Positions 499 to 46,553 of a stretch of DNA of 46,553 bases are shown one piece after another. Where the stretch lies: sequence record MK372342. One strand, given 5' to 3'. The position numbers and the translations under genes are program-made. The stretch comes from Escherichia phage vB_EcoS_IME542. Positions within the stretch are counted from its first letter, which is position 1; each line of letters begins with the position of its first letter. Under the pieces are notes generated by a model, which was not told where the DNA came from, ran no database searches, and saw only the letters and a list, made by a program, of their open reading frames with translations.

Positions 499-524
499 AT
501 AAAAAAACCTCCCGAAGGAGGTTA
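499..524 (-). terminator. rho-independent terminator after primase gene
   Basis: Minus strand reads AACCTCC-TTCG-GGAGGTT followed by TTTTTTT; overlaps stop codon. Confidence 0.7.
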
Positions 525-1445: not shown

Positions 1446-1921
1446 TTGCTTAACCCGTGATTTTCGTGAAAGTTGTATTTTCTCTCTGCTTCAATTCTTA
1501 CTTTATACGCCTGCTCTGGAGTATCGAAGTTCCCAAGGTGTAGATGCTTGCCGTCAACCTTGATGTGAGCCTTAAATTTTCCGTGATTTAGCTTTGCCAC
1601 TCCACAATAACCATTTGTTGATAAAACGCTAAGCTTGCAATTTCTTGAGTTACCTTGATTTGTTGTTACTCTTAGGTTTTCTATTCTGTTATCTAATTTG
1701 TTATGGTTTATATGATCAATGTAGTCGCCATTTTGAAGCTCTCCATTAAACATCTCCCACACAACTCTATGTACATAAGTCCTAAAGCCATTAACAGACA
1801 CTTTGTAATAGCCAGATGTAGATAGTGAGTTGCACTCATCGCCAACCTTAACACGTCTTGCAGTGCTAATCTTCCAATGCAATTTGCCATCTACATAGTA
1901 AAAATAATCATGCCAGTTCAT
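1442..1921 (-). CDS. HNH homing endonuclease (HNH + AP2-like C-terminus), paralog 1 of 5
   Basis: MNWHDYFYY...DHINHNKLDNRIENLRV HNH motif; shares N- and C-terminal motifs with ORFs at 20312, 32960, 42296, 43536. Confidence 0.85.
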   Translation of the reverse strand: MNWHDYFYYVDGKLHWKISTARRVKVGDECNSLSTSGYYKVSVNGFRTYVHRVVWEMFNGELQNGDYIDHINHNKLDNRIENLRVTTNQGNSRNCKLSVLSTNGYCGVAKLNHGKFKAHIKVDGKHLHLGNFDTPEQAYKVRIEAERKYNFHENHGLSK

Positions 1922-1936: not shown

Positions 1937-1966
1937 AAAAAAGGATGTACCGATTATGGCACATCC
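1937..1966 (-). terminator. terminator hairpin after HTH gene whose loop carries an extended -10-like TGcCATAAT for the downstream HNH gene
   Basis: Minus strand: GGATGT-gccataatcggt-ACATCC then TTTTTTATT. Confidence 0.5.
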
Positions 1967-1972
1967 AATTCC

Positions 1973-2446
1973 TTACTCTTTAGCTTTTCGTGCTGCTTCG
2001 TTGGCGGCTTTAATTTTTCGCCACGAACGACACTCTGGCTTAGTGGCCAGTTCAGCCTCTGTAACCACGCGCAGCATGTGACGCTTTTTGCAGCGCAGAG
2101 TTAGCGGCTTGCCATTGCCGTCGAATTGCAGGTCTGGTCGGCAGAATGTGGCTCGAAAGCCTTCTCCATTTCGCTTGTAGTAGTTGTGTGAAAGCTGAGC
2201 TCCACGTGCCGATATCATTCCGCGCTTAAACCATTCTTCTACAGCCTGCGGTGTCACCTTTAGCTGCTTTGCGATATTCGCCTTTGTGCCGAAGAAATCA
2301 AGAACAATCTCCAGTCGCGCGCGTAGCCCGGCTCTTACTTCATCTTTTAAAACGTAGTAACCCGATGGTCGTTTTCGTTGTTTTTTGTCTTCAGTGCGGA
2401 CAGTTCCGTTATTGCCGTTAATGGTTCGCTTATCAACTGCATTCAT
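1973..2446 (-). CDS. HTH DNA-binding protein (candidate transcription regulator)
   Basis: 157 aa, basic; helix-turn-helix-like segment ANIAKQLKVTPQAVEEWFKRG; GAGGTGA RBS. Confidence 0.45.
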   Translation of the reverse strand: MNAVDKRTINGNNGTVRTEDKKQRKRPSGYYVLKDEVRAGLRARLEIVLDFFGTKANIAKQLKVTPQAVEEWFKRGMISARGAQLSHNYYKRNGEGFRATFCRPDLQFDGNGKPLTLRCKKRHMLRVVTEAELATKPECRSWRKIKAANEAARKAKE

Positions 2447-2459
2447 TTAATCACCTCAA

Positions 2460-2501
2460 TAGCATTTTTTGTTAAACAATAGGTTCGATAATTGCTATTA
2501 T
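2460..2501 (+). promoter_or_regulatory. promoter for helicase operon: degenerate TAGCA box plus extended -10 TGcTATTAT (2493..2501); overlaps a divergent minus-strand -10
   Basis: TAGCAttttttGTTAA then TGCTATTAT read directly; divergent intergenic region 2447..2542. Confidence 0.5.
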
Positions 2502-2542
2502 ACAGCAATGCAACGAACTAACAAACAGCTAGGATATTTAAA

Positions 2543-4537
2543 ATGCTTCCAGTAGAGCGCTTAGTAGCCAACTTTGATCAAGAGAAGATTAAGCAGATTC
2601 AGAAGGATTATCAGTTTGGAGAAATCACGCCATACCCATTCCAGTGCGTGACATTCGACCAAATAGGTAAGCACATCGCTAAGTACGAAGCGCCATTCAT
2701 AGCAGACCTGTCGGTATCGGCAGGTAAGACAATCATTCTTGCCATGATTGGTAAACGCATGGAGCAGCTTGGCCTTCCTTACATGGTGCTTTCTCGCCAG
2801 TCAGAAATCATCAGCCAGAATGCTGAAGAACTCCGTAACTTCGGTATCCGTAATAGCGTATATTGCGCTGGCCTTAACGTTAAATCTGTTTACTACCCAA
2901 CTATAGTGGCAAGTGAAGGAACGGCGGCAAACGGCTTGTTCAAGGGGCTTGGTGACTATGTTCCGGCAGTTATCGCTATTGATGAGTGTCACATGCTAAA
3001 TCATATGGATATTGTCGAAGCCGAAGAGAACGAGGAAACGTTTGAGCAGATGAGCACCGCAAAAGGTGAGATGGTTTTCAAGGATGGTGAATACACGGGG
3101 TTAACTGGTACAGGTCGTTCGCAATACACTTTAATCATTACAGAGATGAAACGCCGTTGCCGTGAGAAATACAAGCGAGAACTACGTATCTTTGGTCTCA
3201 CTGGTAGCCCATACCGTGATAACAATCATATCGTGGTAAGTAATCCTAACATTCGAGGATTTTGGCGTAAGACGGTTATGCAGGTTCCAACCAATTACCT
3301 GGTGGATTTGGGTTTTGTTGTCCCAACTGTTTACGGTGAGGTTGGTGATTTGGGTTATGATCTTGCTGAATTTGCGCCAGATGGTGATGATGGAATCAAA
3401 GACTTCAGTAAGAAAGAAATGGATGCGATGCAGGAAAAAATTCATCAAAACCAGTCCATGACGCAAAAGATTATGCAGTTCGCAGCCAAGTTTATGGAAA
3501 CTCGTAACGCAGCGCTAGTAACTTGTTCAGGCAAGCGGCATTGCGAGGAGGCAGCCGCGGCGCTTCCTGATGGCGTAACCTGGGCTATAGTAACTGACTC
3601 TACTGGTGAGAAAAAACGTCGTGAGATTCTTTCTGACGCAGCTGAAGGTAAGTATAAATTCATCTTTCAGATTGGTTGTCTCACAACCGGCGTGAACGTC
3701 CCGCCATGGGATACGTCAATAATTCTTCGGAAGGTTGGAAGCATCACGTTATTGATTCAACTTTTGGGGCGAGGTATGCGGATTCTTAAGAAGAAGCATA
3801 AGGAAATGGGAATGGTTAAGGATGATCACGTGGTGCTGGACTTCGCTGGTACTCTTGATGATATGGCAGAATTGTACTTTGACCCAATTATAGAGGAGGT
3901 GCAAGACCAGAAATTCAAGTCTTCTAGTAAAGGTGGTGACGAGCCAAGGGTATGTCCAGCTTGTAGCTATGAGAACTCGCCATTTGCTCGTCGTTGTAAT
4001 AATGTTATCGAAGGTAAAAGGTGTGAGCACTTTTTTCAGTTTCGTACCTGTGATGATATTGAAGACACGCAGACAAAAGTTACTATTAAGAAAGGTTGTG
4101 GTGAGAAGAATGATATTGCTGCTAAAAACTGCCGTTGCTGCGGAGAAATGCTTATTGACCCTAACGCAAAGCTGTCTGGAAAGATGTATCGACAAGGGGA
4201 TTGGTTGAGAGTTTACGGATTCAGTATTGGGTTAACTAAAAACCAAAACGGGATCGTTGCTCGCTATGAAATCATGGCTCACAGCGGTGACAGGTTTGTT
4301 GCTTACGAAACTTTCTTTCCAGAGAGTGATCATCGCGTTTGCTCTGTGAAGTGGAAGGCGTTTTGCCAAACTCACATCGCTAACAAAACAGAAGCATTTC
4401 GCATCGGGAGACTGCGTAATGCAAGAATGATTATGACTAACGCAAGTCAATTTCGTGAGCCTTTGCGGGTGACTCATAGAAAAAATCAGAAAGGTCAGGA
4501 TATCATTGCAAACAAATCTTTTACTATGGAGGATTGA
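2543..4537 (+). CDS. SF2 (DExH-type) helicase with C-terminal zinc-ribbon region
   Basis: Walker A VSAGKT, motif II IDECH, C-terminal CPACSY...CRCCG cysteine pairs; 664 aa. Confidence 0.7.
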   Translation: MLPVERLVANFDQEKIKQIQKDYQFGEITPYPFQCVTFDQIGKHIAKYEAPFIADLSVSAGKTIILAMIGKRMEQLGLPYMVLSRQSEIISQNAEELRNFGIRNSVYCAGLNVKSVYYPTIVASEGTAANGLFKGLGDYVPAVIAIDECHMLNHMDIVEAEENEETFEQMSTAKGEMVFKDGEYTGLTGTGRSQYTLIITEMKRRCREKYKRELRIFGLTGSPYRDNNHIVVSNPNIRGFWRKTVMQVPTNYLVDLGFVVPTVYGEVGDLGYDLAEFAPDGDDGIKDFSKKEMDAMQEKIHQNQSMTQKIMQFAAKFMETRNAALVTCSGKRHCEEAAAALPDGVTWAIVTDSTGEKKRREILSDAAEGKYKFIFQIGCLTTGVNVPPWDTSIILRKVGSITLLIQLLGRGMRILKKKHKEMGMVKDDHVVLDFAGTLDDMAELYFDPIIEEVQDQKFKSSSKGGDEPRVCPACSYENSPFARRCNNVIEGKRCEHFFQFRTCDDIEDTQTKVTIKKGCGEKNDIAAKNCRCCGEMLIDPNAKLSGKMYRQGDWLRVYGFSIGLTKNQNGIVARYEIMAHSGDRFVAYETFFPESDHRVCSVKWKAFCQTHIANKTEAFRIGRLRNARMIMTNASQFREPLRVTHRKNQKGQDIIANKSFTMED

Positions 4538-4773
4538 TTATGAGTGCATTAGCTTTAGCTATAAAGGAAATGATTGAAGAAGACATAAAGAAAAGAAACT
4601 ATGAGACTATAATGTCCGTCTCTGATAATGTTTTTGAACATATACTATATCATGGGGTAACGAGCGAGGATTCCTGTTGTGCAGGTATGGTGTACAATGG
4701 CATTTACCTTAGTGAGCATGAAATAATCTCAGCTTACTTTTCTAGAAATCAAGATGCGGAACCATTATTTTGA
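4534..4773 (+). CDS. hypothetical protein
   Basis: 79 aa ORF, ATGA start/stop overlap with helicase gene. Confidence 0.4.
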   Translation: MIMSALALAIKEMIEEDIKKRNYETIMSVSDNVFEHILYHGVTSEDSCCAGMVYNGIYLSEHEIISAYFSRNQDAEPLF

Positions 4774-5189
4774 AAATCACAGATAAAGAAGATTACATTG
4801 AGTTTTACCCTGGTGCTGTAAAGTCATGCCCAAAGGAGGACGACGAACAGATCTTTTGCTCTGATTGGGTTAAGTATCATTACCCTCAGATTGTTTACTG
4901 GCACACAGTTAATGAAGGGATGAAATCAATTGGGTCAGCAAGGAAGGATGCAGCTAAAGGGCTCCTTAAGGGCGTATCAGACTGCTTATTCCTGATACCT
5001 GAATCACTTCGCGGAAAGTACCCTTTCGGAGCCATAGAGCTAAAGAGGGCTGGCAAAACCCAGGCTAGCACAGTCAGCGACGAACAAAAGTCTTTCCTTA
5101 AAAGCGTAAGAGAATCAGGTGGTTTCTCCGCTGTAGCCTATGGGCGCGAAGGTTTTCTTGCAGCATTCAAAGAAATGATTTCAAAATAG
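4770..5189 (+). CDS. VRR-NUC / PD-(D/E)XK-like nuclease
   Basis: D-x(n)-E-L-K arrangement (DCLFL...GAIELKRAGK); 139 aa; stop TAG lies inside the TAGCA box. Confidence 0.5.
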   Translation: MKITDKEDYIEFYPGAVKSCPKEDDEQIFCSDWVKYHYPQIVYWHTVNEGMKSIGSARKDAAKGLLKGVSDCLFLIPESLRGKYPFGAIELKRAGKTQASTVSDEQKSFLKSVRESGGFSAVAYGREGFLAAFKEMISK

Positions 5190-5247
5190 CACGAATTGCT
5201 AAAGACGAATTGGTGAGTTGGTGTATTATCAACTCATCGAAACGAAA
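5187..5247 (+). promoter_or_regulatory. boxed promoter element: TAGCAcgaatTGCTA, TGTATTAT -10, CATCGAAACGAAA leader
   Basis: Read directly; shares architecture with 14 other copies. Confidence 0.55.
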
Positions 5248-5267
5248 CAAGCAAAGAGAGAAAGAAA

Positions 5268-5462
5268 ATGGCTACTATCTATACTGGCAAAATGTACGAA
5301 TCACGCAAAACTGGTTATGTGTACGAGTTGGTTATCACTGAAGGCGGTTATGTGCTTGATGATAATTGTGGTTACTCATTCGAAGTTAGCCCAACCTACA
5401 AAGATGATTTAGAAACTGTTAAAAACGCATTCGGCGAAAAATTTGATGAGGTATCAGAATAA
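5268..5462 (+). CDS. hypothetical protein
   Basis: 64 aa, purine-rich RBS, downstream of boxed promoter. Confidence 0.5.
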   Translation: MATIYTGKMYESRKTGYVYELVITEGGYVLDDNCGYSFEVSPTYKDDLETVKNAFGEKFDEVSE

Positions 5463-5683
5463 TGGCTATCTTTACTTTTGAAAATCAATGGGAAGTGTTT
5501 AAGTTAATGGCAGTTCATGAGCTAAAGAAATCTGGTTATAACAAAAACCCATGGGACTTAGCACTTTGTCTTGATATGAGCTTTGAAGAAGATTATTTAA
5601 ATACCGATATTGATACATGGCGTGACCGTATAATTGCTGATATCGAAGAAATGAAAAAGGATTGCCTGGAGGATTTTGAGTGA
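5462..5683 (+). CDS. hypothetical acidic protein
   Basis: 73 aa ORF, start overlaps previous stop. Confidence 0.45.
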   Translation: MAIFTFENQWEVFKLMAVHELKKSGYNKNPWDLALCLDMSFEEDYLNTDIDTWRDRIIADIEEMKKDCLEDFE

Positions 5684-5808
5684 TGAAAATAGTAGACAAA
5701 GAGATGTTCGAGATTGCACAGGTTTACGCAAGTGACGCTGTTAAGACTCGATCAGAGTATTGCTGGATGTGCGCTCGAGAATACTTAAAAATGGCTTACG
5801 GCCTATGA
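5683..5808 (+). CDS. hypothetical small protein (41 aa)
   Basis: Hand-translated MKIVDKEMFEIAQVYASDAVKTRSEYCWMCAREYLKMAYGL; GGAGGA RBS; below ORF-track length cutoff. Confidence 0.35.
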   Translation: MKIVDKEMFEIAQVYASDAVKTRSEYCWMCAREYLKMAYGL

Positions 5809-6047
5809 TAGTTGAAACCGGACGCGCCGCTGTATGGGCGCACTGTGGAGAGGCGGGTTTGCAAGATGACATCAAGAAAATATCTAAATACTTCGATATT
5901 CAAGAAATCAGCGTTGTGTACGGCGGTAAATTTTCATATATACAAGATCGTCCAAGGAAATATGTGAGAGTTAAGCCTGGTGTGAGTATTGATGTTAACG
6001 ATTTCCTGAAATCTCAGGGATGCAAATTTAAGATAACGAAGGTTTAA
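5805..6047 (+). CDS. hypothetical protein (ATG 5805 preferred over track TTG 5760)
   Basis: ATGA overlap with preceding small ORF; 80 aa. Confidence 0.45.
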   Translation: MIVETGRAAVWAHCGEAGLQDDIKKISKYFDIQEISVVYGGKFSYIQDRPRKYVRVKPGVSIDVNDFLKSQGCKFKITKV

Positions 6048-29906: not shown

Positions 29907-32888
29907 ATGGCAACAAATGAATTAGCCGGAATCACACTAGCCGTAGACGTCTCGCAGGTAGACAGAGGTACACAGTCCCTGCGGAAGTTCAGGCAGGCAA
30001 ACCAGCAGGCCGCTTCCGGCATTAGTGAGTTCGTCAACGCCGAGCAGGTTGCAAAGAATCAAGCCAGAGACACAGCTCGCGCACTGGCTGAACGGCAATC
30101 ATCTTTGGCTAAATTGCAAACGGCTATTGACCCAACTGCGGCAAAGTTCCGTAAACTCCAGGAGGCTGCTGTAGGTCTTGATAAGGCTTTCGCGGCTGGA
30201 GTAGTTCCTGATGAGGAGTTTTTCCGCTTAGGTGAGGCGCTTGAAACGCAGAACGCAAAACTTGCTCGTTCACGTGCGGCACTAACTGAAGAGGGTAGAG
30301 CGGCGGCGCAAGCTGCAAAGGATAAGGCAAAGGCAAAGGCTGAAGCGGATAGATTCATTGCATCACTTGAGCGTCAGGCTCAGGCGGCAACATTGACGCG
30401 AGAGGAGTACCTAAAGTTACAAGCGGCCCAGCTTGGCGTAAGTTCTCAGGCGGCGCCTATTATTGACAGAATCGCCGATGCATCACGGAAGGCAAACACC
30501 CAGCTAATTGCTCAGAGCAAGGCCTTTCAACGCTCTGGCTTAAGCGCAGGTCAATACAAGGCTGCAATCTCTCAATTGCCAGCGCAGATTACAGATATTG
30601 GGACATCACTTGCTGGCGGCATTCCGATTTGGCTTATTGCAATTCAGCAAGGTGGACAAATTAAGGATGCATTTGGAGGTATTGGTAACACATTTAGTTT
30701 TGCGCTTGCTGCTTTAAACCCGTTCAACGTAGCAGTTGGGGTTCTCGGTGGCGCGCTTGTTGCTTTAGGCGTCGGTGCTGCGCAGGCTGAAAGTGAATTC
30801 AGGGCGTTAAACTCCGCCATTGCGTTCTCAAACAACTCCACAATCGCATCAATCTCGCAGGTTAGAGAGTTGGTTAGCTCTGTTTCTGATGCCACTGGTG
30901 CAACCAGAGGACTTGTGACTAGCATCGCAACAAGCCTTGTTGAGCAAGGAAACCTTACGCTAACGCAGATTGACAAGATTACTAAATCAACAGCCAGATG
31001 GGCTCAGTTGACAGGTAAGGATGCAAAGGAAATTACTGGTTACTATAACCAGATTGCGAGCGACCCAATTCAAGGACTTGCTGATTTAGACAAGAGGTTT
31101 AACTTCCTTACACAGGGGCAGTTAACAACAATTGAAAGATTGAGAGAGACTAGGGGTGAGGTTGAAGCCGTAACTGCTGCTATTGATATATTTAGCAAAT
31201 CACAAGAGGCAAACCTTAACGATATTGCAGCCCAGCTTACTCCTCTTGAATTGGCCTGGAATGACTTCAGGAAGTACATATCTGATGTATGGGATGCAAT
31301 TAGTCGCAGAACGGTTGGGGCGCTAAACCTGTTTGTTGACGTAATCGCCGGAACAATTGAGCAAATTAGGGTCTTCATCAACCAGGGTGATGTGCTGATT
31401 GGTGAATTCGTAATTAGCGCAACACAGGCACTGCAGAACATCCCCGGCCTTGATGGTGTTGGTGATGATGTTGTCAAGGGACAGCAGAAGATTATCGATG
31501 CCGCTAAGAAGCAAAACATTGAGCTAGAGAAGTCTATCAAGGAGCGCGATGCCAGAATCAGAGAAGGAGAACTTGGCTACGTTACTCGCAGAGAAAATCA
31601 GAATACCAATGAGCAGTCAGGCACGGATGAGGAGTTTGCAAAAAGGAAGAAAGCGCTTCAGGATGAACTTGATGCGATCAAGAAGAGCAGGAAAGAAGAA
31701 AATGGTAGGGTTAAAGAGCAAAGAGACCTTACAATTGGTTACGAATCTGGCGTACTTGCACTACAGGCACAACTCAAGGTGCTTCAGGAAAACAGGGATA
31801 TTGGCGCAGTAATAAGCAATGAGCGCAAGCAGTATCTTCAGGAGGTTGCAAAATTCCAGATTCTTGAGCAAAGGCAGCGTGATGGCTCAATAAAAAAAGA
31901 GCAAGCAAGACTTATTCTCGAGAAAGATAAAGTTCTGGAACTAGCAAGGCAGAAAGCTGAACTTGGCGATCAGATTGTTTTGCAGGAAAGAGCTAATAAG
32001 TTAGCTGAGGATAACAGGAAGAAGATTCTTCAGATCAACAACGAAGCAAATAACATTGGTTTTGGCGCCGGATTATCATCTCGTGAGCAGCAGAGAGCCA
32101 GAGAGATTCAGTCGCTTCAGTCCAATCAGTTAAACAAAGGTGGCTCTGTAGATGACACTGATTTTCAGGCTTTACTCGAAGCAAGGCGTAATTTCTATGC
32201 TCAAGAGGATGCGCTACGTGAAAACTGGCTTGCTGGCGTGAATCAATCCTTTGCTAACTGGGCTGAAAGCGCTACAGATGCTTTCTCAATTGCCGGAAGT
32301 TTAACCACTAAGGTATTTGAAGGCATTACTGACCAGATTACTGACCTTGTAACCACTGGAGAAACAAACTTCAGGGAGTTTACTGTAAACATACTCAAGC
32401 AGATTGCAAGAATTGCAACTCAGCTTCTTATTGTTAAGGCTATCGAGTCTAGCTTAAGTAGCTTTGGTGGTACTGGTGGCGCGATTGGGTCTATCGCATC
32501 TGCGATTGGCGGTGGCTTTGCTAGCGGCGGTTACACTGGAGACGGTGGAAAATATCAACCAGCAGGCACTGTACATAAGGGGGAGTTTGTATTCACAAAA
32601 GAAGCAACAAGCAGGATTGGTGTTAAAAACCTTTACGCATTGATGAGAGGTTACGCAAATGGCGGTGTTGTAGGCGGGCCTTCGGGCTATGCAAATGGCG
32701 GCTTGGTTTCTGGTGGTGCAGATGTTAATGTTAGCGGAATAACCGTTAACGTTAATAGTGGGATTGGAAGCGACCCGGAACAGGCCAAGGCGCTGCAAAA
32801 TGGCGTTAAGGCAATTGTAGCAGAAGAGATTGCTCAGTCTTTCCAGCAGGGCGGCAGAGCATTTGCTTATTTGAGAGGTTTCAACTAA
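29907..32888 (+). CDS. tail tape measure protein
   Basis: 993 aa, long alpha-helical Ala/Gln/Glu-rich N-terminal half, Gly-rich C-terminus; position after G/GT. Confidence 0.85.
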   Translation: MATNELAGITLAVDVSQVDRGTQSLRKFRQANQQAASGISEFVNAEQVAKNQARDTARALAERQSSLAKLQTAIDPTAAKFRKLQEAAVGLDKAFAAGVVPDEEFFRLGEALETQNAKLARSRAALTEEGRAAAQAAKDKAKAKAEADRFIASLERQAQAATLTREEYLKLQAAQLGVSSQAAPIIDRIADASRKANTQLIAQSKAFQRSGLSAGQYKAAISQLPAQITDIGTSLAGGIPIWLIAIQQGGQIKDAFGGIGNTFSFALAALNPFNVAVGVLGGALVALGVGAAQAESEFRALNSAIAFSNNSTIASISQVRELVSSVSDATGATRGLVTSIATSLVEQGNLTLTQIDKITKSTARWAQLTGKDAKEITGYYNQIASDPIQGLADLDKRFNFLTQGQLTTIERLRETRGEVEAVTAAIDIFSKSQEANLNDIAAQLTPLELAWNDFRKYISDVWDAISRRTVGALNLFVDVIAGTIEQIRVFINQGDVLIGEFVISATQALQNIPGLDGVGDDVVKGQQKIIDAAKKQNIELEKSIKERDARIREGELGYVTRRENQNTNEQSGTDEEFAKRKKALQDELDAIKKSRKEENGRVKEQRDLTIGYESGVLALQAQLKVLQENRDIGAVISNERKQYLQEVAKFQILEQRQRDGSIKKEQARLILEKDKVLELARQKAELGDQIVLQERANKLAEDNRKKILQINNEANNIGFGAGLSSREQQRAREIQSLQSNQLNKGGSVDDTDFQALLEARRNFYAQEDALRENWLAGVNQSFANWAESATDAFSIAGSLTTKVFEGITDQITDLVTTGETNFREFTVNILKQIARIATQLLIVKAIESSLSSFGGTGGAIGSIASAIGGGFASGGYTGDGGKYQPAGTVHKGEFVFTKEATSRIGVKNLYALMRGYANGGVVGGPSGYANGGLVSGGADVNVSGITVNVNSGIGSDPEQAKALQNGVKAIVAEEIAQSFQQGGRAFAYLRGFN

Positions 32889-35943: not shown

Positions 35944-38900
35944 ATGGCACAAATGATCAAAACAAACATGAGGCTTTGTGATATGGCTGAAGAAATTAAG
36001 ATTTATGGTGCCAAAGGCGGTAGCCAGAAGCAGCATCAACCAGTGGAGCAGGAAGATAACCTAATTTCACTTAACAAGGTTAAGGTATTACTTGCGGTTG
36101 CTGACGGAGAGGTGGACCCTAACTTCTCATTGAAGGATTTATACCTTGCTGATGTTCCAGTGCAAAATCAGAATGGCACCTACAACTATGAAGGTGTTCG
36201 CGCCGAGTTTCGCGCTGGTACGCAATATCAGGACTATATCGCTGGGCTTGACGGTGCGAACTCAGAGATTCAGGCTTCCAGGGAAATTACGAACGATACC
36301 CCGTACATCATTGCGGTTAATAACAGCCAGCTTTCGGCGATTCGAGTTAAACTCTTTTGGCCTCGACTGATCAAACAAGAAAGTAACGGAGACCTGAATG
36401 GCACAACTTGCGAGTATGCAATTGACTTGTCAGTTAATGGTGGGGCATATCAGCAATATACTCGCGGAGTTGCAAACGGGAAAACAACAACTGGTTACGA
36501 CCGTAGCATACGTGTAAACCTTCCCGCTGAATTTGATAGTGCGCTGGTTCGCATCCGTAAGATTACAGCAGACTCAACAAGTAGCACGCTGGTTAATGGA
36601 ATGCAGATTACAACCTATCAGGAAGTAATTGACGCTAAATTCCGCTATCCGCTTACTGCTCTGGTTTACGTTGAGTTCGGCTCTGACCTGTTCCCTAACG
36701 GAATCCCAACAATCTCTATCAAGAAGCGATGGAAGTTAATTCAGGTCCCAACAAACTATAACCCTGAAAGCAGAACTTACAGCGGCACATGGAATGGTTT
36801 ATTTAAAATGGCGTGGTCAAATAACCCAGCATGGGTTCTTTATGACTTAGTGACAAACCGCAGATATGGACTTGACCAGCGAGAGTTAGGTGTAGAGATT
36901 GATAAGTGGGGCTTGTATGAAGCTGCACAATTCTGCGACCAGATGGTTCCAGATGGTAAAGGTGGAATGGAACCTCGTTATCTTTGCGATATGGTTGTAC
37001 AGAATAAGGTTGAGGCATACACACTAATTCGTGATGTCTGCTCAATATTCCGCGGCCTGACATTCTATGATGGCGAAAAGATTGGCATCGTAGTTGATAA
37101 GCCTCGCAATCCATCTTACATCTTCACGAACGATAACGTTGTAAATGGATTATTCAGCCGCACATTCGCTAGCGAAAAGAGTCTTTACACTACTGCGAAC
37201 GTACAGTTTGATGATGTGGAGAATAACTATCAGCAAGATGTAGAGCCGGTATTTGAATTAGAGGCAACCCGCCGCTTTGGATTTAACCCTGTTGATTTAA
37301 CTGCTATTGGCTGCACTCGCAGAAGTGAAGCAAACAGGCGCGGAAGATGGCTTCTAAAAACCAACCTGAGAAGCGAAACTATCAGCTTCACAACTGGGTT
37401 AGAAGGTATGATTCCGATGATTGGCGAGGTTATTGCGGTTAATGACGCAGCATGGTCGAGCAACTATCAGTTAAACCTTTCTGGTCGAATCGAATCTGTG
37501 CAAGGATTGCAGGTTTTTACTCCGTTTAAAGTTGATGCAGCACCTGGTGACAGAATCCTGCTTAACAAACCGGACGGTAGCCCAGAGGCTAGAACTATCG
37601 CAAGCGTATCTGAAGATGGTAGAACTATTAACCTGAACACGGCGTTCAGTTTTGTAGCTCAGCAAGATACTGTTTTCGCAATCGACAAGGACAATCTGGC
37701 ACTTCAGCAATATGTTGTGACTGGTATTCAAAAAGCAGATACTGATGGTCAGGACTCGTTCCAGTACACAATTACTGCTGTTGAGTACGACCCGAACAAA
37801 TATGACGAGATTGACTACGGAGTTAACATTATAGACCGCCCTACTTCAATTGTAGAACCTGACAGATTGTCGCCACCTGAGAACTTAACAGTATCAAGCT
37901 ACAGCAAGGTTGTTCAGGGTTTATCGGTTGAGACGATGGTAATAGGGTGGGACAAAGCGCCATACGCTAAAACATACAATGTTCAGTGGAGGAAAGAGAA
38001 TGGTAACTGGATTAACGTACCCAGAACAGCTAGCACAGAAGTTGATATTGAAGGTATTTACGCAGGAATCTATGACGTTAGGGTTCGCAGCGTATCAGAT
38101 ACTGAAAACGTCTCTGCCTGGTCTGATATTGTAACTGTATCGCTAACTGGCAAGATTGGTCGCCCATCTGCGCCAACCGTTATTACTGCTTCAACTGATG
38201 AGGTGTTTGGCATTCGTGTTAAATGGGGATTCCCTGAAGGCTCAGGCGACACAGCTTACACTGAACTTCAGCAAGTTGCTGATAACGGTGACGGTACTTA
38301 CAACCCTGATAACGCGAGCTTGCTGACGCTGCTTCCTTATCCAGCCTATGAATACTGGCACACGCCAATTCAGCCAGGCAAGGTTATCTGGTATCGTGCA
38401 AGATTAATTGACAGAATCGGCAACACCTCTGACTGGTCTGATTTCGCTAGAGGTATGAGCACTGACGATGCCAACATTATCAACGAATATATCAAAGTTG
38501 ACATTGAAGGTTCGGAAGGATTCAAATATCTCGAACAGAATGCGATTCAAAAGAATCAGGACATTCAGAATCAGGCTGAGGCAATCATCGAGAACGCATT
38601 AGCAAATGACACTGATGTTCGCCGCATGACAAAGGAGAATGGTGCCAGAAAGGCTGAATACGTTCAGGCGGTGAATCTTATTGCTGATGAAACTCAGGCG
38701 CGCGTAGAGGCTCTCACGCAGCTTAAAGCGCAGATTGATGGTGAGGTTGTAGCTTCCATAACTGAGGTTCAGACGGCACTAGCCACCGAAACAGAAGCAA
38801 GGACCACTGCCGATACTGCTTTGAGAGCTCAGCTTGGAGATACTCAGGCTGCACTTAATGAAAAACTTGACTCATGGGTTGATGCGGAATCCGCTGGCGC

Positions 38901-39372
38901 TCAGTACGGTGTTAAGTTAGGTCTAAAATATAATGGGGTTGAGTATAGCGCAGGGATGAGCATGGAGCTTGTTGGCAGTGGTACTGGCGTTAAGAGTCAG
39001 TTCATCTTTGACGCAAACAGATTCGCTATCAGTAACGGGATTGGATCTGGTTCCGGTCAGTGGTCATTGCCTTTTGTTGTTGAGAGCAACCAGGTGTTCA
39101 TCCAGAGCGCCGTGATCAAGGATGGATCAATCACTAATGCCAAGATTGGTAACAGAATTCAATCAAATAACTACGTTCAAGGAAGTCAGGGGTGGGCTAT
39201 TGATAAATCTGGTTTTGCTGAACTAAGTAATGCCACCGTTAGAGGAAGCCTTTACGCTAACAATGGTAACTTCGCGTTTAACGGAACAGGCAACACTGTT
39301 CAGATTAACGGTAACGGAATCACTGTTAACCTACCAGGTGGAGGAATGGTTGTAGTTGGAGTATGGAGTTAA
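35944..39372 (+). CDS. central tail fiber / host specificity protein, lambda gpJ-like
   Basis: 1142 aa; recognisable gpJ segments (SGTWNGLFKMAWSNNPAWVLYDLVTNRRYG, IDKWGLYEAAQFCDQMVPDGKGGMEPRY, RRGRWLLKTNL). Confidence 0.85.
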   Translation: MAQMIKTNMRLCDMAEEIKIYGAKGGSQKQHQPVEQEDNLISLNKVKVLLAVADGEVDPNFSLKDLYLADVPVQNQNGTYNYEGVRAEFRAGTQYQDYIAGLDGANSEIQASREITNDTPYIIAVNNSQLSAIRVKLFWPRLIKQESNGDLNGTTCEYAIDLSVNGGAYQQYTRGVANGKTTTGYDRSIRVNLPAEFDSALVRIRKITADSTSSTLVNGMQITTYQEVIDAKFRYPLTALVYVEFGSDLFPNGIPTISIKKRWKLIQVPTNYNPESRTYSGTWNGLFKMAWSNNPAWVLYDLVTNRRYGLDQRELGVEIDKWGLYEAAQFCDQMVPDGKGGMEPRYLCDMVVQNKVEAYTLIRDVCSIFRGLTFYDGEKIGIVVDKPRNPSYIFTNDNVVNGLFSRTFASEKSLYTTANVQFDDVENNYQQDVEPVFELEATRRFGFNPVDLTAIGCTRRSEANRRGRWLLKTNLRSETISFTTGLEGMIPMIGEVIAVNDAAWSSNYQLNLSGRIESVQGLQVFTPFKVDAAPGDRILLNKPDGSPEARTIASVSEDGRTINLNTAFSFVAQQDTVFAIDKDNLALQQYVVTGIQKADTDGQDSFQYTITAVEYDPNKYDEIDYGVNIIDRPTSIVEPDRLSPPENLTVSSYSKVVQGLSVETMVIGWDKAPYAKTYNVQWRKENGNWINVPRTASTEVDIEGIYAGIYDVRVRSVSDTENVSAWSDIVTVSLTGKIGRPSAPTVITASTDEVFGIRVKWGFPEGSGDTAYTELQQVADNGDGTYNPDNASLLTLLPYPAYEYWHTPIQPGKVIWYRARLIDRIGNTSDWSDFARGMSTDDANIINEYIKVDIEGSEGFKYLEQNAIQKNQDIQNQAEAIIENALANDTDVRRMTKENGARKAEYVQAVNLIADETQARVEALTQLKAQIDGEVVASITEVQTALATETEARTTADTALRAQLGDTQAALNEKLDSWVDAESAGAQYGVKLGLKYNGVEYSAGMSMELVGSGTGVKSQFIFDANRFAISNGIGSGSGQWSLPFVVESNQVFIQSAVIKDGSITNAKIGNRIQSNNYVQGSQGWAIDKSGFAELSNATVRGSLYANNGNFAFNGTGNTVQINGNGITVNLPGGGMVVVGVWS

Positions 39373-39377
39373 AATAT

Positions 39378-39400
39378 AGCCCCCTTCTGGGGGCTTTTTT
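39378..39400. terminator. terminator hairpin between convergent J gene and minus-strand RBP gene
   Basis: AGCCCCC-ttct-GGGGGCT followed by TTTTTT. Confidence 0.65.
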
Positions 39401-40370
39401 AGTACATGTTTGGTATGTACGGTAACCGCATTGAGATGTTGGTGTTGAATGGGAACCGCGCGCCAGACTGCGTTGAGTAGTTACCATAAACACTTCCTTT
39501 ATGCGCCCTAACCTGACCATTTGACATTGCAACGCCCTTGTATCTAAGGTTGTTGTATCTACCAGTAACCTCAACCATCGCGCCGCACCTTAGTATTGGG
39601 AAAAACCCATTACCTATTGATTGGTATGAGTTGGAAAGCTGGAGGAATCCACTTAGTACAAAAGGTCGCTTGACGCTGGAAAACACTATCTGGCCAGAGG
39701 CGTTTGACATTGTTAAACCAGGCCCTGCGGTTGGTGCTGTATTGTTGAATATAACAAGATCGATAGTTACTGATGCTGATACATTATCAATTCCTGTGTA
39801 GGTATTGTTTCTACATAGTATTCTTTTCCCGTCAAACTCAAGGGTGACATTTGGGTTATTCCACCTTCCAAACGGTATTCCAGTCATCGGGAGTGTATAG
39901 CTTCCATTCACAGTCACAGTTCCGACATACTGAGCAGTCAGGAGTCTACTGTTTGATGTTATTGCAGTGAAGTTAGTCGAATCACTGACAAATATCCCCT
40001 CACTGCCTGGTGATTCACCAAGAACCTCAAAACCTTGCGCACCAAATCCAATCAAACGTCCTGATGAGCCGTTAAAGTTACCTATACTTATCCTTCCAGT
40101 TGAGTTATTGACCCTGGAAAATCCATTCATGAAATAAACCTCAGGTATGAAGTTGAAGTCATAAACGTCAATAGCCTTTGTCGGCAATATGAAGGCCTCA
40201 GATCCTTGAGTCATTGTTAGTCCGAAGTCTCTAGTGCCATTGGCGGAATTAAACGTGGAGTTACTGCTAAGGCTTCCTGTTACTGATGGCGCTCTTAAAC
40301 CTGCAGTTATCTCCATTCTCGGTCTTCCGTCATTCAAGTCTATCAAGATACCCTGAGGCATTATTTCCAC
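39399..40370 (-). CDS. putative receptor-binding protein (antisense, downstream of J)
   Basis: 323 aa Asn/Ser/Thr/Gly-rich protein; co-transcribed with upstream lipoprotein gene; call is by position and composition. Confidence 0.45.
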
Positions 40371-40591
40371 TCCTTGGTGCCATGATCTTTAACTGATCCA
40401 GAGAAGTTTTTGATACCATCCCAGCGGATATCTGTTTCACCTGAAGCTACAACTACACCTCCTTTCCATTTAGCAACACATGAGCCGTTAACTTCAGTCG
40501 CGCACCAACCGTCAGGTCGGGGTCCGGAAGAACAACCTACAGTCATGATTACTGCTGCCGCGATTATTGCTGATTTGATGAAGTTAGTCAT
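40361..40591 (-). CDS. small lipoprotein, candidate superinfection-exclusion (Cor/Llp-like) protein
   Basis: [22 protein letters not shown] signal peptide with lipobox; 76 aa; AAGGA RBS; boxed promoter upstream. Confidence 0.5.
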
Positions 40592-41337: not shown

Positions 41338-42309
41338 ATGGGCTTTAAAGTTTTTACGCGAGAGGAGTTAAGCAGCGAGTCTTACCACTCTGAGACTGAT
41401 CACATCTCTGGCAGTTCACTTGTCGAGATTATCCAGGGTTCTCCAGCTAAGTGGAAGTTCAAGCAGCGAAACAATGATAGTAAGGCGCTTAAGTTTGGCA
41501 CTTTATCTCACTGTATGATTCTAGAACAAGATGTGTTCGATAAAGAGTACTTGCGAGCAACCGACCTTGATGCGATTGATGGTTTAATTACAAGTCAGAC
41601 AGCATTATCGGCAGCACTTAAAAAAGTTGGTGTAGCTGGCACGTCAGGGAAGGGGTATAGCGAGCTTGTAGAGATGATGTATCGCTCTGGTGAGGATTGG
41701 AGTGTTAAATGGTTAATTGAGCAGCAGGAGAGCGCCCAAGCGCTTGTGGAGGGTAAGGAGCTGGTTAGCGCAGCAGACTATGACGAAGTGGTCGCCATGC
41801 GTGAGGTTCTTTGCAATATTCCGGCATATAATAAAATCGTGAATAGCGAAACGGCGCAGAAAGAGTTATCAATATTTGGTGAGATTCTCGGTGTAGGAGT
41901 GAAGATTCGAATAGACCACGTAGATGTAATTGATGGAGTTGTATGCATTACAGACCTGAAGACGACAGCCAGCGCATCACCTCAGGAGTTTGGGAGGCTT
42001 GCATTCAAGCACGGGTATCTCGCAAAAATGGCCCTTCAGCACGATGTTTTCGTCAGGGCTTTTAACGAGAAAAGAAGAACAAAAGTAAGGTTACTTGCAA
42101 TCGAGAAAGAGGCACCTTACTTACCAATGCTTTACAATATTACAGAAGAGCAACTGAAGGTTGGTCGTAGAATGTATCTAGAGGCCCTTGCAACTTACAA
42201 GAAGTGCAAAGAGAATGATGTGTGGCCCGGATATGCGATGGGTGCAACAGAGATTGATTTAGATGTACCTGAGTGGGATATGAGGAAATACAGAGATGAA
42301 CTGGTCTGA
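41338..42309 (+). CDS. recombination exonuclease, PD-(D/E)XK type (putative)
   Basis: IDHVDVIDGVVCITDLKTT resembles D...(D/E)xK nuclease core; located next to Erf-like and SSB genes. Confidence 0.5.
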   Translation: MGFKVFTREELSSESYHSETDHISGSSLVEIIQGSPAKWKFKQRNNDSKALKFGTLSHCMILEQDVFDKEYLRATDLDAIDGLITSQTALSAALKKVGVAGTSGKGYSELVEMMYRSGEDWSVKWLIEQQESAQALVEGKELVSAADYDEVVAMREVLCNIPAYNKIVNSETAQKELSIFGEILGVGVKIRIDHVDVIDGVVCITDLKTTASASPQEFGRLAFKHGYLAKMALQHDVFVRAFNEKRRTKVRLLAIEKEAPYLPMLYNITEEQLKVGRRMYLEALATYKKCKENDVWPGYAMGATEIDLDVPEWDMRKYRDELV

Positions 42310-42787
42310 AATTTTTGATTACGATGGGGTTAATTTGATATGGAAGATAATGAGCGGAACTAGAGGTTGCATTGGTAAAGTTGCTGGAAATGTAAGTAAG
42401 ACTAACGGTTATGTAAGGTTGAGGTACGATGGCAGGGAGCACAAGGTTCACAGAATTATATTGGATATCGTAAATGGTAAAATACCTAGTGGTTTATTTG
42501 TTGATCACATAAATCACATTAGAAATGATAACAGGATTGAGAACTTGCGATTGGTGAATAGGCAAGGAAATGCCATGAATCAGTCATTGAGAAAAACAAA
42601 CAAAACCGGAGTTCTGGGTGTTAGTTGGGTGCCAAGGCTATCAAAATATGTAGCAAGAATGGGTGTGGATGGTTACGAGTATCACATTGGGTGTTTTGAC
42701 TCAATCGAGGAAGCCGCTAGAGCAAGAAAAAGCGAAGAGGTTAAGTTGGGATTTCATAGAAATCACGGAAATAGCACAAATTGCTAA
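42296..42787 (+). CDS. HNH homing endonuclease, paralog 4 of 5
   Basis: MNWSEIFDYDGVNLIWKIM..., VDHINHIRNDNRIENLRLVN, C-terminal GFHRNHGN; overlaps end of exonuclease gene by 14 nt. Confidence 0.85.
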   Translation: MNWSEIFDYDGVNLIWKIMSGTRGCIGKVAGNVSKTNGYVRLRYDGREHKVHRIILDIVNGKIPSGLFVDHINHIRNDNRIENLRLVNRQGNAMNQSLRKTNKTGVLGVSWVPRLSKYVARMGVDGYEYHIGCFDSIEEAARARKSEEVKLGFHRNHGNSTNC

Positions 42788-43494: not shown

Positions 43495-43535
43495 ATAAAA
43501 CGGGGCTTATGCCCCAACAAAACAGAGAGAAAAGA

Positions 43536-44048
43536 ATGAATGGTAAGAATTTGAGCTTTGAATACTTATCTAAGTTATTCAAAATAGATTCAGATGGAAA
43601 CCTTTGCAGGAGATTCGCGGTAAAAAAGGCTAAGGCCGGATTAGTTGTAGGAAAGCCGGATCATCTTGGTTATATGTCAATATACCAAGACAATAAAAGA
43701 CTAAAAGTGCATCGCATTGCATATTGCGTTAACTCTGGAGAGGATTTGCTAGGTAGCTTTGAGATTGATCATATTGATGGTAATCCATCAAACAACAACG
43801 TTGCAAATTTAAGGAAATGCAATAGGGTAGAAAACCAACAAAACAGTGGTGCCAATAAAAATAATTCACTTGGATATAAAGGTGTTTGCTTACACAAGAA
43901 AACAGGAAAGTACTTCGGTAGATGGATGTACAATAGAAAGTTTTACTCAACAAAGTATCACCTGCTACCTATAGATGCGTACAATGAGTTGTTGGATATA
44001 AAATCAAAGTTTAAATCCGAATTTATAAACGGAGAGGAAATGAAATGA
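43536..44048 (+). CDS. HNH homing endonuclease, paralog 5 of 5 (divergent)
   Basis: EIDHIDGNPSNNNVANLRKCNRVEN; ATG 43536 with purine-rich RBS preferred over track 43509. Confidence 0.75.
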   Translation: MNGKNLSFEYLSKLFKIDSDGNLCRRFAVKKAKAGLVVGKPDHLGYMSIYQDNKRLKVHRIAYCVNSGEDLLGSFEIDHIDGNPSNNNVANLRKCNRVENQQNSGANKNNSLGYKGVCLHKKTGKYFGRWMYNRKFYSTKYHLLPIDAYNELLDIKSKFKSEFINGEEMK

Positions 44049-44473
44049 GTCACGTAATTACCGGTACAATTCGCCGCCAGCCATTCACAAAAGAAGGCAG
44101 CAATTCAAATGGTTTATGGAAAATGTATGCTATAGACTTGTCAGAAAGATATAAGAACAAAGATAATGAAACTTGCTGGAACAATTACAGGGCTGTATTC
44201 TTTGCAAAAGAATCAATGCTTGCATGGTATGACGAGGCATTTCAGGAAGGAAAGATTGTTAGCGTAAGTTGCGAAACGTTGGCTGTTGATGTTCGTGATA
44301 AGGATGGAAAGACTTACGTAACAATCAACATGAATAACCCGCGACTTGAGTTTAGTCAGCGTGGTGATTCAGCACCACAACAACAACATCAACAGCAACA
44401 GCAGCCGCAACAGCAGCAGCAGCAAAAACAACCACAGCAGAATCAGACTTTTGAAGATGATATTCCATTTTGA
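44045..44473 (+). CDS. ssb: single-stranded DNA-binding protein with Gln-rich linker and acidic DDIPF tail
   Basis: C-terminal ...FEDDIPF matches the conserved SSB tail (E. coli SSB ends DDDIPF); poly-Q linker. Confidence 0.75.
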   Translation: MSHVITGTIRRQPFTKEGSNSNGLWKMYAIDLSERYKNKDNETCWNNYRAVFFAKESMLAWYDEAFQEGKIVSVSCETLAVDVRDKDGKTYVTINMNNPRLEFSQRGDSAPQQQHQQQQQPQQQQQQKQPQQNQTFEDDIPF

Positions 44474-44477
44474 TAGT

Positions 44478-44507
44478 AAAAACCCCGCATAGGCGGGGTT
44501 TTTTTAT
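44478..44507. terminator. bidirectional rho-independent terminator between convergent ssb and tailspike genes
   Basis: A-run, CCCCGC-atag-GCGGGG, T-run. Confidence 0.75.
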
Positions 44508-44509
44508 TG

Positions 44510-46553
44510 TTAAAAGTTTCTATATACCTCAGTCCACCCCTCTGGCTCTATTAACTCAACCATAATAATGTGTCTAGTTGATTTCAAGGCCACGTCTACT
44601 CCTCCTTTCATATAAAAACTTGAACTAGATTTTAATGTCAAAGTGTTTGATGCAGAAGCTGATGAACTCCTTATTTGTATTTGCATCCCGGCTTCCTCAG
44701 TGTAGCCAGTTATTCCATCTACACTAGAGCTTGCACTATGAGTTAATCTATATTTATTACCGGGATTTGTATTAAATTGTATCTTCTGGTTACTTCCCGA
44801 AACGGTCACATTAACGACAGGATTAATTAATACTCTCGCTAACTGCTTAGTAAACTCAGTTCGACCAACCCCAGAGTTTGGCATTACGGAGTTCCCAATA
44901 TCAAGGTCTGTAGTTCGCGTTGTGTAGTTACGAAGAGCAGTGGTGTTAACTGCAATGTTTTCCACCCACTGGTTACTACCGCCGCCCGCCTCAATATCTA
45001 CCCCACCTGTTTGCGTGGTGTTAAGAAGATAAAACATATTAGAAAAACTAGCATCTTGGCTTCCACATGTATTACCAATAACGCGACATGATGAAAGGCT
45101 GCCTTGTATAAAGAATGCAGCTAAAGGGATGCTTCCGACAGTAATCCAGTCTTCCATGTTGTAATCGTCACTACCATTGAACCCAGCATCAACATGATTA
45201 TCCCTAATGATCATGTTAGGGTTGTTGTTTGTTCCAGAATAATGCCCAATAAAAAACCCACCACGACGTATCCTATTGCCATGACACAACACATGACCTG
45301 CATTTGAACCACCAGTAATTCGAATTCGCCCGTACTCAATTGCGTTATCGCGAATTGTGATTGATGCGGTCGTCAAGTTTGACGCAACAGTTTGCAGTGT
45401 TACACCGCCTCTTATCGTGGCTGTTCCTTCGTACAATGGCTCACACTCGTAAGGGTTGGTTACTGGGATAACTCCAGCACTGCGGAATGTATTGTCATGG
45501 ATTTCCACATACTGCATATTCTGGCCTGACGAGTTTGGTTCTAGATCTATTTCTCCGTAAATAATATTGTCATGTACTTTCAGGCCTACGACGTCGATAA
45601 CAGCCATTGCCAAACGGGATCGTGTGCCGCCACCTGATGCGTCCCAGGATCGAATGCCGTTGCCGTAACGCTCCTTAAGTATGCAATTCCTTACTGTTAC
45701 ATCTCTAGAGAATTTTCCTGTTATTGCGCCATTCTCAAGATCTCCACCAAAATAGATGCAGTCACCGTAGAAGTTATCAATGTAAACATTATCGAAAATG
45801 ACGCTCTTGCATTTATAACCCAACGCGAATGCCTGGTCTCTTTCTCGAGAGGGCGAAGTAGCACCGCCACCGTAACCTATCACCTTCATATTTCGGATGA
45901 TAACGTTGTTCGCAGCATAAAGCCCGAACAATCTTCCAATATCATCGCAATAGAGTTCGGTTGAGAATCCATCCCCCTCAATAATTACATTCTTTAAACC
46001 TGCACCCTCAACACCTAAAGTAACAGCTACGCCACCTGGCTTGTATGTGTTTAGACGCTTAAATCTAAACTTCCCTGACGGGAATCTTAATGTCACATTA
46101 CCTCCGTTGGAAATAACATCATTGATTGCTTCCTGAAGTGCAGTGACGTTATTTGTTCCGTTAGATACGCCAGTGGTGGGATCAAAGTCACCAACAAGAC
46201 CGTAATCTGTAACAAGGTTAATAACTGTATTCTGGTAAAAATCAGCAATCGTAGTCGATAAGTTTGATGTAAGACCGCCCCTTTTCAAATTAATGAGTTC
46301 ACCTCCTCTCTCGGACAAATCATTAATTATTTTTGAGTCAGTCTCATCCCTGGAGTAAACATCAAGGTTCTGCCTTGCTAGTGGCTTGTCAGTTAAGTCT
46401 GATAGCGCCAAGTCTTTTCTTAATAGGTTCTGTATGTCAAGTGACGCCGCATAATCTGCCGCCTCCCGCGCTGATGCAGCTGCCGCATCTTTGTCAGCGG
46501 ATGCGCTGGTTGCACTTGCTGCCGCTGCATTCTTATCGGTGGTCACTTTGGCG
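44510..46553 (-). CDS. lateral tail fiber / tailspike, C-terminal part with predicted beta-helix (pectate-lyase-like) glycan-depolymerase domain; 5' end continues across window edge to 434..1
   Basis: Frame is open to position 46553 (track start 46546 is an internal GTG); Ala-rich N-proximal segment with KPLARQNLDVY; recurring beta-strand motifs (VIIRNM, VTVRNC, ITIRDN, MIIRDN). Confidence 0.75.
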   Translation of the reverse strand, partial: AKVTTDKNAAAASATSASADKDAAAASAREAADYAASLDIQNLLRKDLALSDLTDKPLARQNLDVYSRDETDSKIINDLSERGGELINLKRGGLTSNLSTTIADFYQNTVINLVTDYGLVGDFDPTTGVSNGTNNVTALQEAINDVISNGGNVTLRFPSGKFRFKRLNTYKPGGVAVTLGVEGAGLKNVIIEGDGFSTELYCDDIGRLFGLYAANNVIIRNMKVIGYGGGATSPSRERDQAFALGYKCKSVIFDNVYIDNFYGDCIYFGGDLENGAITGKFSRDVTVRNCILKERYGNGIRSWDASGGGTRSRLAMAVIDVVGLKVHDNIIYGEIDLEPNSSGQNMQYVEIHDNTFRSAGVIPVTNPYECEPLYEGTATIRGGVTLQTVASNLTTASITIRDNAIEYGRIRITGGSNAGHVLCHGNRIRRGGFFIGHYSGTNNNPNMIIRDNHVDAGFNGSDDYNMEDWITVGSIPLAAFFIQGSLSSCRVIGNTCGSQDASFSNMFYLLNTTQTGGVDIEAGGGSNQWVENIAVNTTALRNYTTRTTDLDIGNSVMPNSGVGRTEFTKQLARVLINPVVNVTVSGSNQKIQFNTNPGNKYRLTHSASSSVDGITGYTEEAGMQIQIRSSSASASNTLTLKSSSSFYMKGGVDVALKSTRHIIMVELIEPEGWTEVYRNF

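Follow-up and report, generated by a model that had tools for sequence, protein, structure and literature searches.

An Escherichia phage lateral tail fiber encoded by a gene split between the two ends of a sequence record carries a predicted polysaccharide-processing beta-helix. The record is the 46,553-nucleotide (nt) DNA of Escherichia phage vB_EcoS_IME542 (MK372342), all of which was analyzed in silico and is here called the window. We conclude with good confidence that the product is the lateral fiber of a T1-like phage, a tailspike-like protein, most likely trimeric, that binds, and probably cleaves, a host surface polysaccharide through its beta-helix. An earlier reading made from the letters and open reading frames (ORFs) alone, hereafter the sequence-only reading, had proposed a lateral tail fiber with a depolymerase-type beta-helix at 44510-46553.

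The fiber gene and its anchor

On the minus strand of 44510-46553, an ORF ends at the stop codon 44512..44510 and stays open up to the window edge. Joining minus strand 434..1 to 46553..44510 gives an uninterrupted ORF of 825 codons (2478 nt), in which codon 145 is split between the two window ends and a GGAG lies 11 nt upstream of the ATG at 434. In megablast, the gene was found again in Escherichia phage TR1 (OP087522.1, UVD31764.1; Drexlerviridae, Braunvirinae, Christensenvirus), where it is annotated as 'tail fiber protein' and is likewise 825 residues and 2478 nt long. The two genes are essentially identical, with 10 mismatches in 2478 nt and seven amino acid differences, and are colinear through the window junction. 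The neighboring genes are also the same, and identity between the window and TR1 stays at 99-100% from 38507 on, past the junction and as far as 1952.

Because its ends join in frame and TR1 is colinear across the junction, the window is a complete, circularly permuted genome of a T1-like phage, cut within the tail fiber gene. Window ends 1 and 46553 share no terminal repeat of 10-500 bp. One could suppose instead that a contig end cuts a pseudogene, so that the ORF is truncated or artifactual and there is no functional full-length fiber; the ORF does reach the window end and, taken alone, begins at an internal GTG without a ribosome-binding site. This is extremely improbable given the GGAG and ATG found at 434 and the colinearity of the 825-residue ORF with both TR1 and a second, metagenomic copy (P0001), and we rejected the pseudogene on the strength of the in-frame circular join and the TR1 match. 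The features of the gene, all on the minus strand, are as follows, with the basis of each in parentheses:

1..434, minus strand: 5' part of the lateral tail fiber coding sequence, with ATG at 434..432, codons 1-145 and the N-terminal anchor (circular join, TR1 colinearity)
44510..46553, minus strand: 3' part of the coding sequence, with codons 146-825 and the stop at 44512..44510 (match to the TR1 tail fiber gene, 99.7% nt identity)
Residues 1-147, minus strand: anchor domain (homology to tail fiber N-termini)
46418..46546, minus strand: Ala-rich helical segment, residues 148-190, 37% Ala (composition and model)
46319..46417, minus strand: linker, residues 191-223 (homology boundaries; short PHROG tail fiber matches at residues 185-229)
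46387..46355, minus strand: KPLARQNLDVY, residues 201-211 (sequence)
46342..46319, minus strand: module junction, residues ~216-223 (ends and starts of homology)
44852..46225, minus strand: predicted right-handed parallel beta-helix, residues 255-712, with a capping helix at residues 281-293 (AlphaFold2)
44513..44824, minus strand: predicted C-terminal beta-sandwich, residues 722-825, ending in a conserved W-x-E-x-x-R-N-F (AlphaFold2)
45656..45676, minus strand: conserved motif K438-E-R440-Y-G442-N-G444, the start of a conserved loop reaching to R458 (alignments)
45521..45556, minus strand: conserved motif G478-E-I-D481-L-E483-P-N485-S-S-G-Q489, with the candidate catalytic carboxylates (alignments)

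The N-terminus identifies the type of fiber. Residues 1-178 match PHROG tail fiber families (best E 1.4e-59), and residues 1-175 match the N-termini of 7VYV and 7VZ3 (Depo32) and of 7LZJ (DpK2) at E ~1e-34, with no match to these beyond that point. The annotated lateral tail fiber of phage JulesPiccard (Bas03, QXV81864.1) shares 83% identity with residues 1-219, after which the homology ends abruptly. Lateral fibers of the Drexlerviridae are related to one another only at the far N-terminus (PMC8594841), and it is this conserved anchor that the matches to JulesPiccard, PHROG and Depo32/DpK2 reveal. The locus, too, is that of a lateral tail fiber, lying between the primase gene and the convergent SSB and recombination genes as it does in TR1 and JulesPiccard. 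The fiber type named in the sequence-only reading is thus borne out, as is the existence of a conserved N-terminal anchor. Because the frame continues across the window ends, however, the anchor domain lies at 434..1 and not within 44510-46553, where it had been placed.

Behind the anchor, the Ala-rich segment is probably a helical-bundle neck, as suggested by an AlphaFold2 model in which a helix spans window residues 19-46 with low to moderate local confidence. In Depo32, the equivalent region is a helical-bundle domain that extends to residue 185 (PMC10581125). The motif KPLARQNLDVY had been described as part of the Ala-rich segment; it is present but lies just after it. Homology ends at query nt 210 in megablast and at residue 219 for JulesPiccard, and homology to other carriers of the C-terminal module begins at about residue 224, which puts the module junction at residues ~216-223, right after ARQNLDVYS.

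Predicted fold and conserved residues

To model the remainder of the protein, AlphaFold2 was run on the monomer with a 22-sequence alignment, giving a mean predicted local distance difference test score (pLDDT) of 79.5 and a predicted template modeling score of 0.68. From window residue 111 (residue 258 of the protein) to the end, the pLDDT of 10-residue blocks was mostly 80-97, while the Ala-rich and linker regions were modeled with low confidence. The C-terminal domain has nine predicted strands, with a pLDDT of at least 90 in most 10-residue blocks. A three-stranded right-handed solenoid with an N-terminal capping helix, as expected of the pectate-lyase-like superfamily (PF12708, PF13229), is present in the model. 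Foldseek independently agrees with a beta-helix: AlgE6, AlgE4, a glycoside hydrolase (GH) of family GH110 and RbmB were at the top in the PDB, and viral tail proteins labeled 'parallel beta-helix' and 'pectate lyase superfamily' were at the top in BFVD. The beta-helix signal is well beyond chance.

This fold had been predicted in the sequence-only reading, to be given up if structure prediction returned a different one; AlphaFold2 and Foldseek both return the right-handed parallel beta-helix. The hexamers on which the prediction was based are all present (VIIRNM at residue 362, VTVRNC at 430, ITIRDN at 543 and MIIRDN at 592), and each overlaps a predicted beta-strand, the hexamers forming strand-plus-Asn/Asp-turn elements of successive rungs. 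A helix in the C-terminal part is therefore well founded, but its proposed length of ~600 residues is not: the helix proper comprises ~460 residues, and the remainder consists of a connector and capping helix (residues 224-254 and into the helix) and the separate beta-sandwich of ~104 residues.

Structure comparison of the model gave, among other scores, 31.6 against the Vibrio polysaccharide lyase RbmB, 31.5 against an alginate epimerase/lyase, 30.4 against a GH87 glucanase and 29.8 against the coliphage K5 lyase. The three best neighbors act on uronate polymers and most neighbors are glycan-active enzymes, with GH87, GH110 and GH28 hydrolases scoring nearly as high as the best. The resemblance is one of fold: identity to the AlgE4 and AlgE6 A-modules (2PYG, 5LW3), RbmB (9OZD) and the alginate epimerase/lyase (8JA4) is 12-17% with no sequence-level match, including none to 2PYG. 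Enzymes of the AlgE and RbmB type are, moreover, secreted bacterial proteins and not virion proteins.

We next asked which residues of the helix are retained among 67-69 relatives below 45% identity to the query. The conserved positions in this wider family were N405 at 97%, K438 at 96%, R440 at 97%, G442 at 100% and G454 at 99%, followed by G478 at 100%, D481 at 93%, E483 at 100%, N485 at 96% and Q489 at 93%. Alignments A1 and A3 show no variation at K438, R440 and G442, and A3 shows none at E483, which is E237 in its numbering of 579 residues. Further invariant residues in the alignment of the 22 closer members are D409, E439, Y441, R446, S447, R456, S457, R458 and D465. In the model, about four central rungs in a row carry the conserved residues, together with a loop (residues 439-458) of lower pLDDT.

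Since this charged cluster is conserved against a variable background, the alignments favor an active site over a site that only binds. Together with the uronate-polymer neighbors, the conserved basic residues hint at an acidic substrate and possibly at lyase chemistry. The catalytic set of AlgE comprises Tyr149, Asp152, His154 and Asp178 (PMC7385640). It is not reproduced here, where the family keeps K-x-R and D-x-E-x-N instead; an AlgE-type epimerase or alginate lyase was rejected because no His of the helix is invariant and relatives may have Y, F, V or I at the Tyr position preceding G478.

Family, module exchange and probable function

The connection of the helix to known families is transitive. 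Thirteen of the 54 distant relatives match PF12708 (best 5.9e-26), among them P0022 with 31.4 bits against a cut-off of 27. Nine match PF25692 (Phage_depo_C) at their C-terminus, at E values from 1.8e-8 to 2e-2 that are mostly below the 25-bit cut-off, the query itself having no match, and one relative matches PF13229. The relatives matching PF12708 or PF25692 are 24-37% identical to the query, and they favor the depolymerase-type family put forward in the sequence-only reading; other relatives bear K1-lyase_C, Peptidase_S74 or different adaptors. For GH82, the best helix match was an iota-carrageenase at E 0.04 that covered only the capping region, and membership was rejected.

Judged by sequence searches, the helix-module family is small. 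Residues 189-825 retrieved 27 proteins from 5.8 billion, and an exhaustive phmmer search of 1.84 billion cluster representatives gave 75 representatives at E ≤ 1e-3, of which 26 were at E ≤ 1e-30. Among 50,697 phage records, tblastn with the C-terminal module found only TR1, so no phage of known serotype specificity was usable for inferring the substrate.

Within this family, the module recurs on at least five other tail-attachment modules. The N-termini of relatives include PF18668 (TSP1/gp66 N-terminal), PF09008 (P22 head-binding), long N4-like adaptor-binding regions and a very short one. Examples come from contigs of several phage types: the second gene of a two-gene fiber locus on a T1-like contig, adjacent to SSB, exonuclease, helicase and primase genes (P0002, 80% identity), a contig encoding both DNA polymerase A and an ssDNA-binding protein of the Enc34 type (P0003, 78%), an N4-like contig (P0004, 72%) and a contig of T7/SP6 type that encodes a Phage_tail_NK adaptor (P0009, 56%). 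Prophage copies (P0011-P0013 and P0020) occur in Escherichia marmotae, Leclercia pneumoniae, Obesumbacterium proteus and Enterobacter pasteurii, and one record is labeled Pseudomonas aeruginosa. Taken with the end of T1-like homology at residue 219, this distribution identifies helix and sandwich, at the level of sequence, as an exchangeable cassette joined at residues ~216-223. With such a cassette, the fiber gene would decide to which glycan-bearing strains the phage adsorbs, in agreement with the host-range role assigned to it in the sequence-only reading.

On two metagenomic contigs, L003 (2..2374, 2414..4612) and L007 (1179..3662, 3675..5900), a 78-80% identical cassette is present as the second gene. 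It has a PF18668 adaptor there and sits behind a tail or fiber gene of ~790-827 residues. The one-gene fusion of the window and this two-gene branched arrangement are therefore alternative mountings of the same cassette.

Several known proteins bear comparison with this architecture. Depo32 and DpK2 are K2 capsule depolymerases of the Klebsiella T1-like siphophages GH-K3 and RAD2, with an anchor homologous to residues 1-175 of the fiber and sequence similarity that is undetectable past residue ~175. By cryo-EM, Depo32 is a trimer whose chain begins with an anchor and helical bundle and continues through a neck helix, a connection domain and a capped beta-helix of 12 rungs, the cap being a helix, to distal domains (PMC10581125). 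The order of domains is the same in the fiber (anchor, helix bundle, neck/connection, beta-helix), but what follows the helix differs: a carbohydrate-binding module and a C-terminal helix bundle in Depo32, the single beta-sandwich in the fiber. The candidate catalytic residues of Depo32 (Glu423, Asp543 and Glu545) lie in an inter-subunit cleft.

JulesPiccard has its fiber at the same locus between primase and SSB, and the role proposed for it and for other BASEL Drexlerviridae, engagement of a primary, dispensable glycan receptor, is the one proposed here; its C-terminal ~490 residues are unrelated in sequence. For the lateral fibers of the Drexlerviridae, contact with O-antigen as a dispensable primary receptor has been proposed but never directly shown (PMC8594841). 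The O-antigen tailspikes of HK620, Sf6, P22 and CBA120 (TSP1-4) have no sequence similarity to the helix. Such classical tailspikes are mounted on a podovirus or myovirus baseplate adaptor, whereas the module here is mounted on a siphovirus side-fiber anchor.

On the basis of these comparisons, we propose that the N-terminal ~147 residues dock the fiber on the tail, followed by the Ala-rich helical neck and the short linker, and that the ~460-residue beta-helix and C-terminal beta-sandwich form the receptor-binding part. By analogy to Depo32 and DpK2, with three chains per entry, the protein is most likely a homotrimer. A host surface polysaccharide would be bound along the helix and probably cut at a site made up of K438/R440 and D481/E483/N485 on consecutive central rungs, as the conservation pattern suggests. 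Reversible binding and cleavage may then carry the virion across the glycan layer as far as the outer membrane, where the central fiber and the receptor-binding protein would engage the terminal protein receptor.

Phage TR1 was obtained from a BL21(DE3) fermentation and infects BL21(DE3), as well as receptor mutants of that strain, but failed to infect MG1655, forming plaques on BL21(DE3) with a halo of 0.16 mm (PMC10450929). Infection of a strain that has no O-antigen, with so small a halo, weighs against a glycan-cleaving fiber: the glycan would not be required on this host, and strong depolymerase activity is not evident there. Weighing on the same side, Pfam had no match to the full protein even at E ≤ 1 and NCBIfam had none, and PDB sequence searches (with the single sequence and with two family profiles) found no relative for the helix, all matches being to the N-terminal anchor or, in other members of the family, to their adaptors. 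Consequently, no characterized enzyme anchors the functional call. BL21 has no O-antigen, so the glycan recognized by the fiber either is not needed on BL21(DE3), in line with the dispensable receptor proposed for Drexlerviridae (PMC8594841), or is something other than O-antigen.

These points bear on what the fiber does with its ligand, and the guarded wording of the sequence-only reading, 'hydrolyse or bind', suits them. If it only bound, recognizing a glycan or some other structure without catalysis and keeping its conserved residues for binding or folding, this would agree with the small TR1 halo and with the query reaching no enzyme-family hidden Markov model. We consider this unlikely, because K438, R440, D481, E483, N485 and Q489 remain 93-100% conserved to below 30% identity while the other surface varies, because relatives carry depolymerase-associated Pfam domains and because the structural neighbors are mostly glycan-active enzymes. 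If the fiber does cleave, it could do so as a polysaccharide lyase, by beta-elimination on a uronic-acid polymer such as colanic acid, a K-antigen capsule or enterobacterial common antigen (ECA), rather than as an O-antigen glycoside hydrolase. Basic residues flank the acidic pair, with K438 and R440 conserved family-wide and R446, R456 and R458 invariant in the 22-member alignment; they would suit a carboxylate-bearing substrate, and the halo on BL21(DE3) is in line with this. Lyase chemistry nevertheless seems to us a possible but doubtful variant, given that the Tyr and His of the AlgE set have no conserved counterpart, that GH87, GH110 and GH28 hydrolases score almost as high and that tailspike hydrolases, Depo32 among them, just as typically have a conserved Asp/Glu pair.

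We give still less credence to a broader proposal, in which the cassette would be a depolymerase family with the signature K-x-R-x-G-x-G ... G-x-x-D-x-E-x-N-x-x-x-Q, cleaving an acidic exopolysaccharide widely shared among enterobacteria (such as colanic acid or ECA) and not a serotype-specific O-antigen; the nearest folds to the cassette are uronate epimerases and lyases. Lon-deficient B strains such as BL21 overproduce colanic acid. Such a target, if real, would explain why the module occurs in six or more tail architectures and in several genera of Enterobacterales, as well as the small BL21(DE3) halo of TR1.

Genome context and implications

The gene order around the fiber is primase (522..1445, minus strand), fiber (434..1 and 46553..44510, minus strand) and SSB (44045..44473, plus strand), with a hairpin on either side of the fiber gene:

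506..523, minus strand: terminator-like hairpin after the upstream primase gene (sequence)
44478..44503, no strand assigned: GC-rich hairpin flanked by A and T runs, between the fiber gene and the convergent SSB gene (sequence)

Since a terminator-like hairpin follows the primase gene, the fiber gene looks like a separate transcription unit, and the hairpin at 44478..44503 is probably a bidirectional terminator common to the fiber and SSB genes. There is no tail fiber chaperone gene 3' of the fiber, where the terminator and the convergent SSB gene come next. The SSB itself has an unusually long Gln-rich linker, QQQHQQQQQPQQQQQQKQPQQNQ, before its canonical acidic DDIPF tail. Three HNH-type homing endonuclease-like ORFs are found in the replication and recombination module (1442..1921, minus strand; 42296..42787 and 43509..44048, plus strand). 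TR1 annotates HNH endonucleases at the corresponding places, and the ORF upstream of SSB has 179 residues here versus 124 in TR1.

The window phage departs from TR1 at 1953..4509, in the helicase gene (2543..4537) and upstream of it, where identity falls from 99-100% to 67-88% although 12 kb on the other side are nearly identical to TR1; the drop is the mark of mosaic recombination, with its boundary here. The structural module at 18000-42900 is only about 85% identical to the best deposited phages (for example, IME253, CEB_EC3a and ZL19). Directly after the 1142-residue central fiber gene (35944..39372, plus strand), a gene for a 323-residue protein (39399..40370, minus strand; DUF6453 in TR1) overlaps one for a 76-residue lipoprotein with the lipobox MTVGC (40361..40591, minus strand). 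At the equivalent place, JulesPiccard has the Cor superinfection-exclusion lipoprotein, and 39399..40591 is probably a Drexlerviridae-type locus for the terminal receptor-binding protein and an exclusion protein.

The TR1 fiber has been described only as a generic 'tail fiber protein' with a best BLAST hit covering 26% of the protein, and neither a beta-helix nor a depolymerase was assigned to it (PMC10450929). The same paper reports a podovirus morphology with a tail of ~9 nm (PMC10450929). A genome of this type is that of a Drexlerviridae siphovirus, with a 993-residue tape-measure-sized gene at window 29907..32888 (plus strand), and the TR1 micrograph therefore probably shows broken particles.

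Conceptually, the fiber stays within the established tailspike paradigm, and its gene has an earlier GenBank entry with a generic product name. Its mild novelty lies in the cassette, which has a distinct sequence signature and a precisely bounded exchange junction and belongs to a small family without a characterized member. Were the substrate found, the set of known depolymerase specificities would be enlarged, with possible use against biofilm or capsule, and the junction just after ARQNLDVY could help host-range engineering. Because TR1-like phages contaminate BL21(DE3) fermentations, their adsorption apparatus is also of some practical value. For the phages themselves, the module is a clean example of a receptor-binding cassette that, at a defined junction, has been swapped among tail modules of siphoviruses, podoviruses and prophages, and the fiber gene probably determines to which glycan-coated strains this phage can adsorb.

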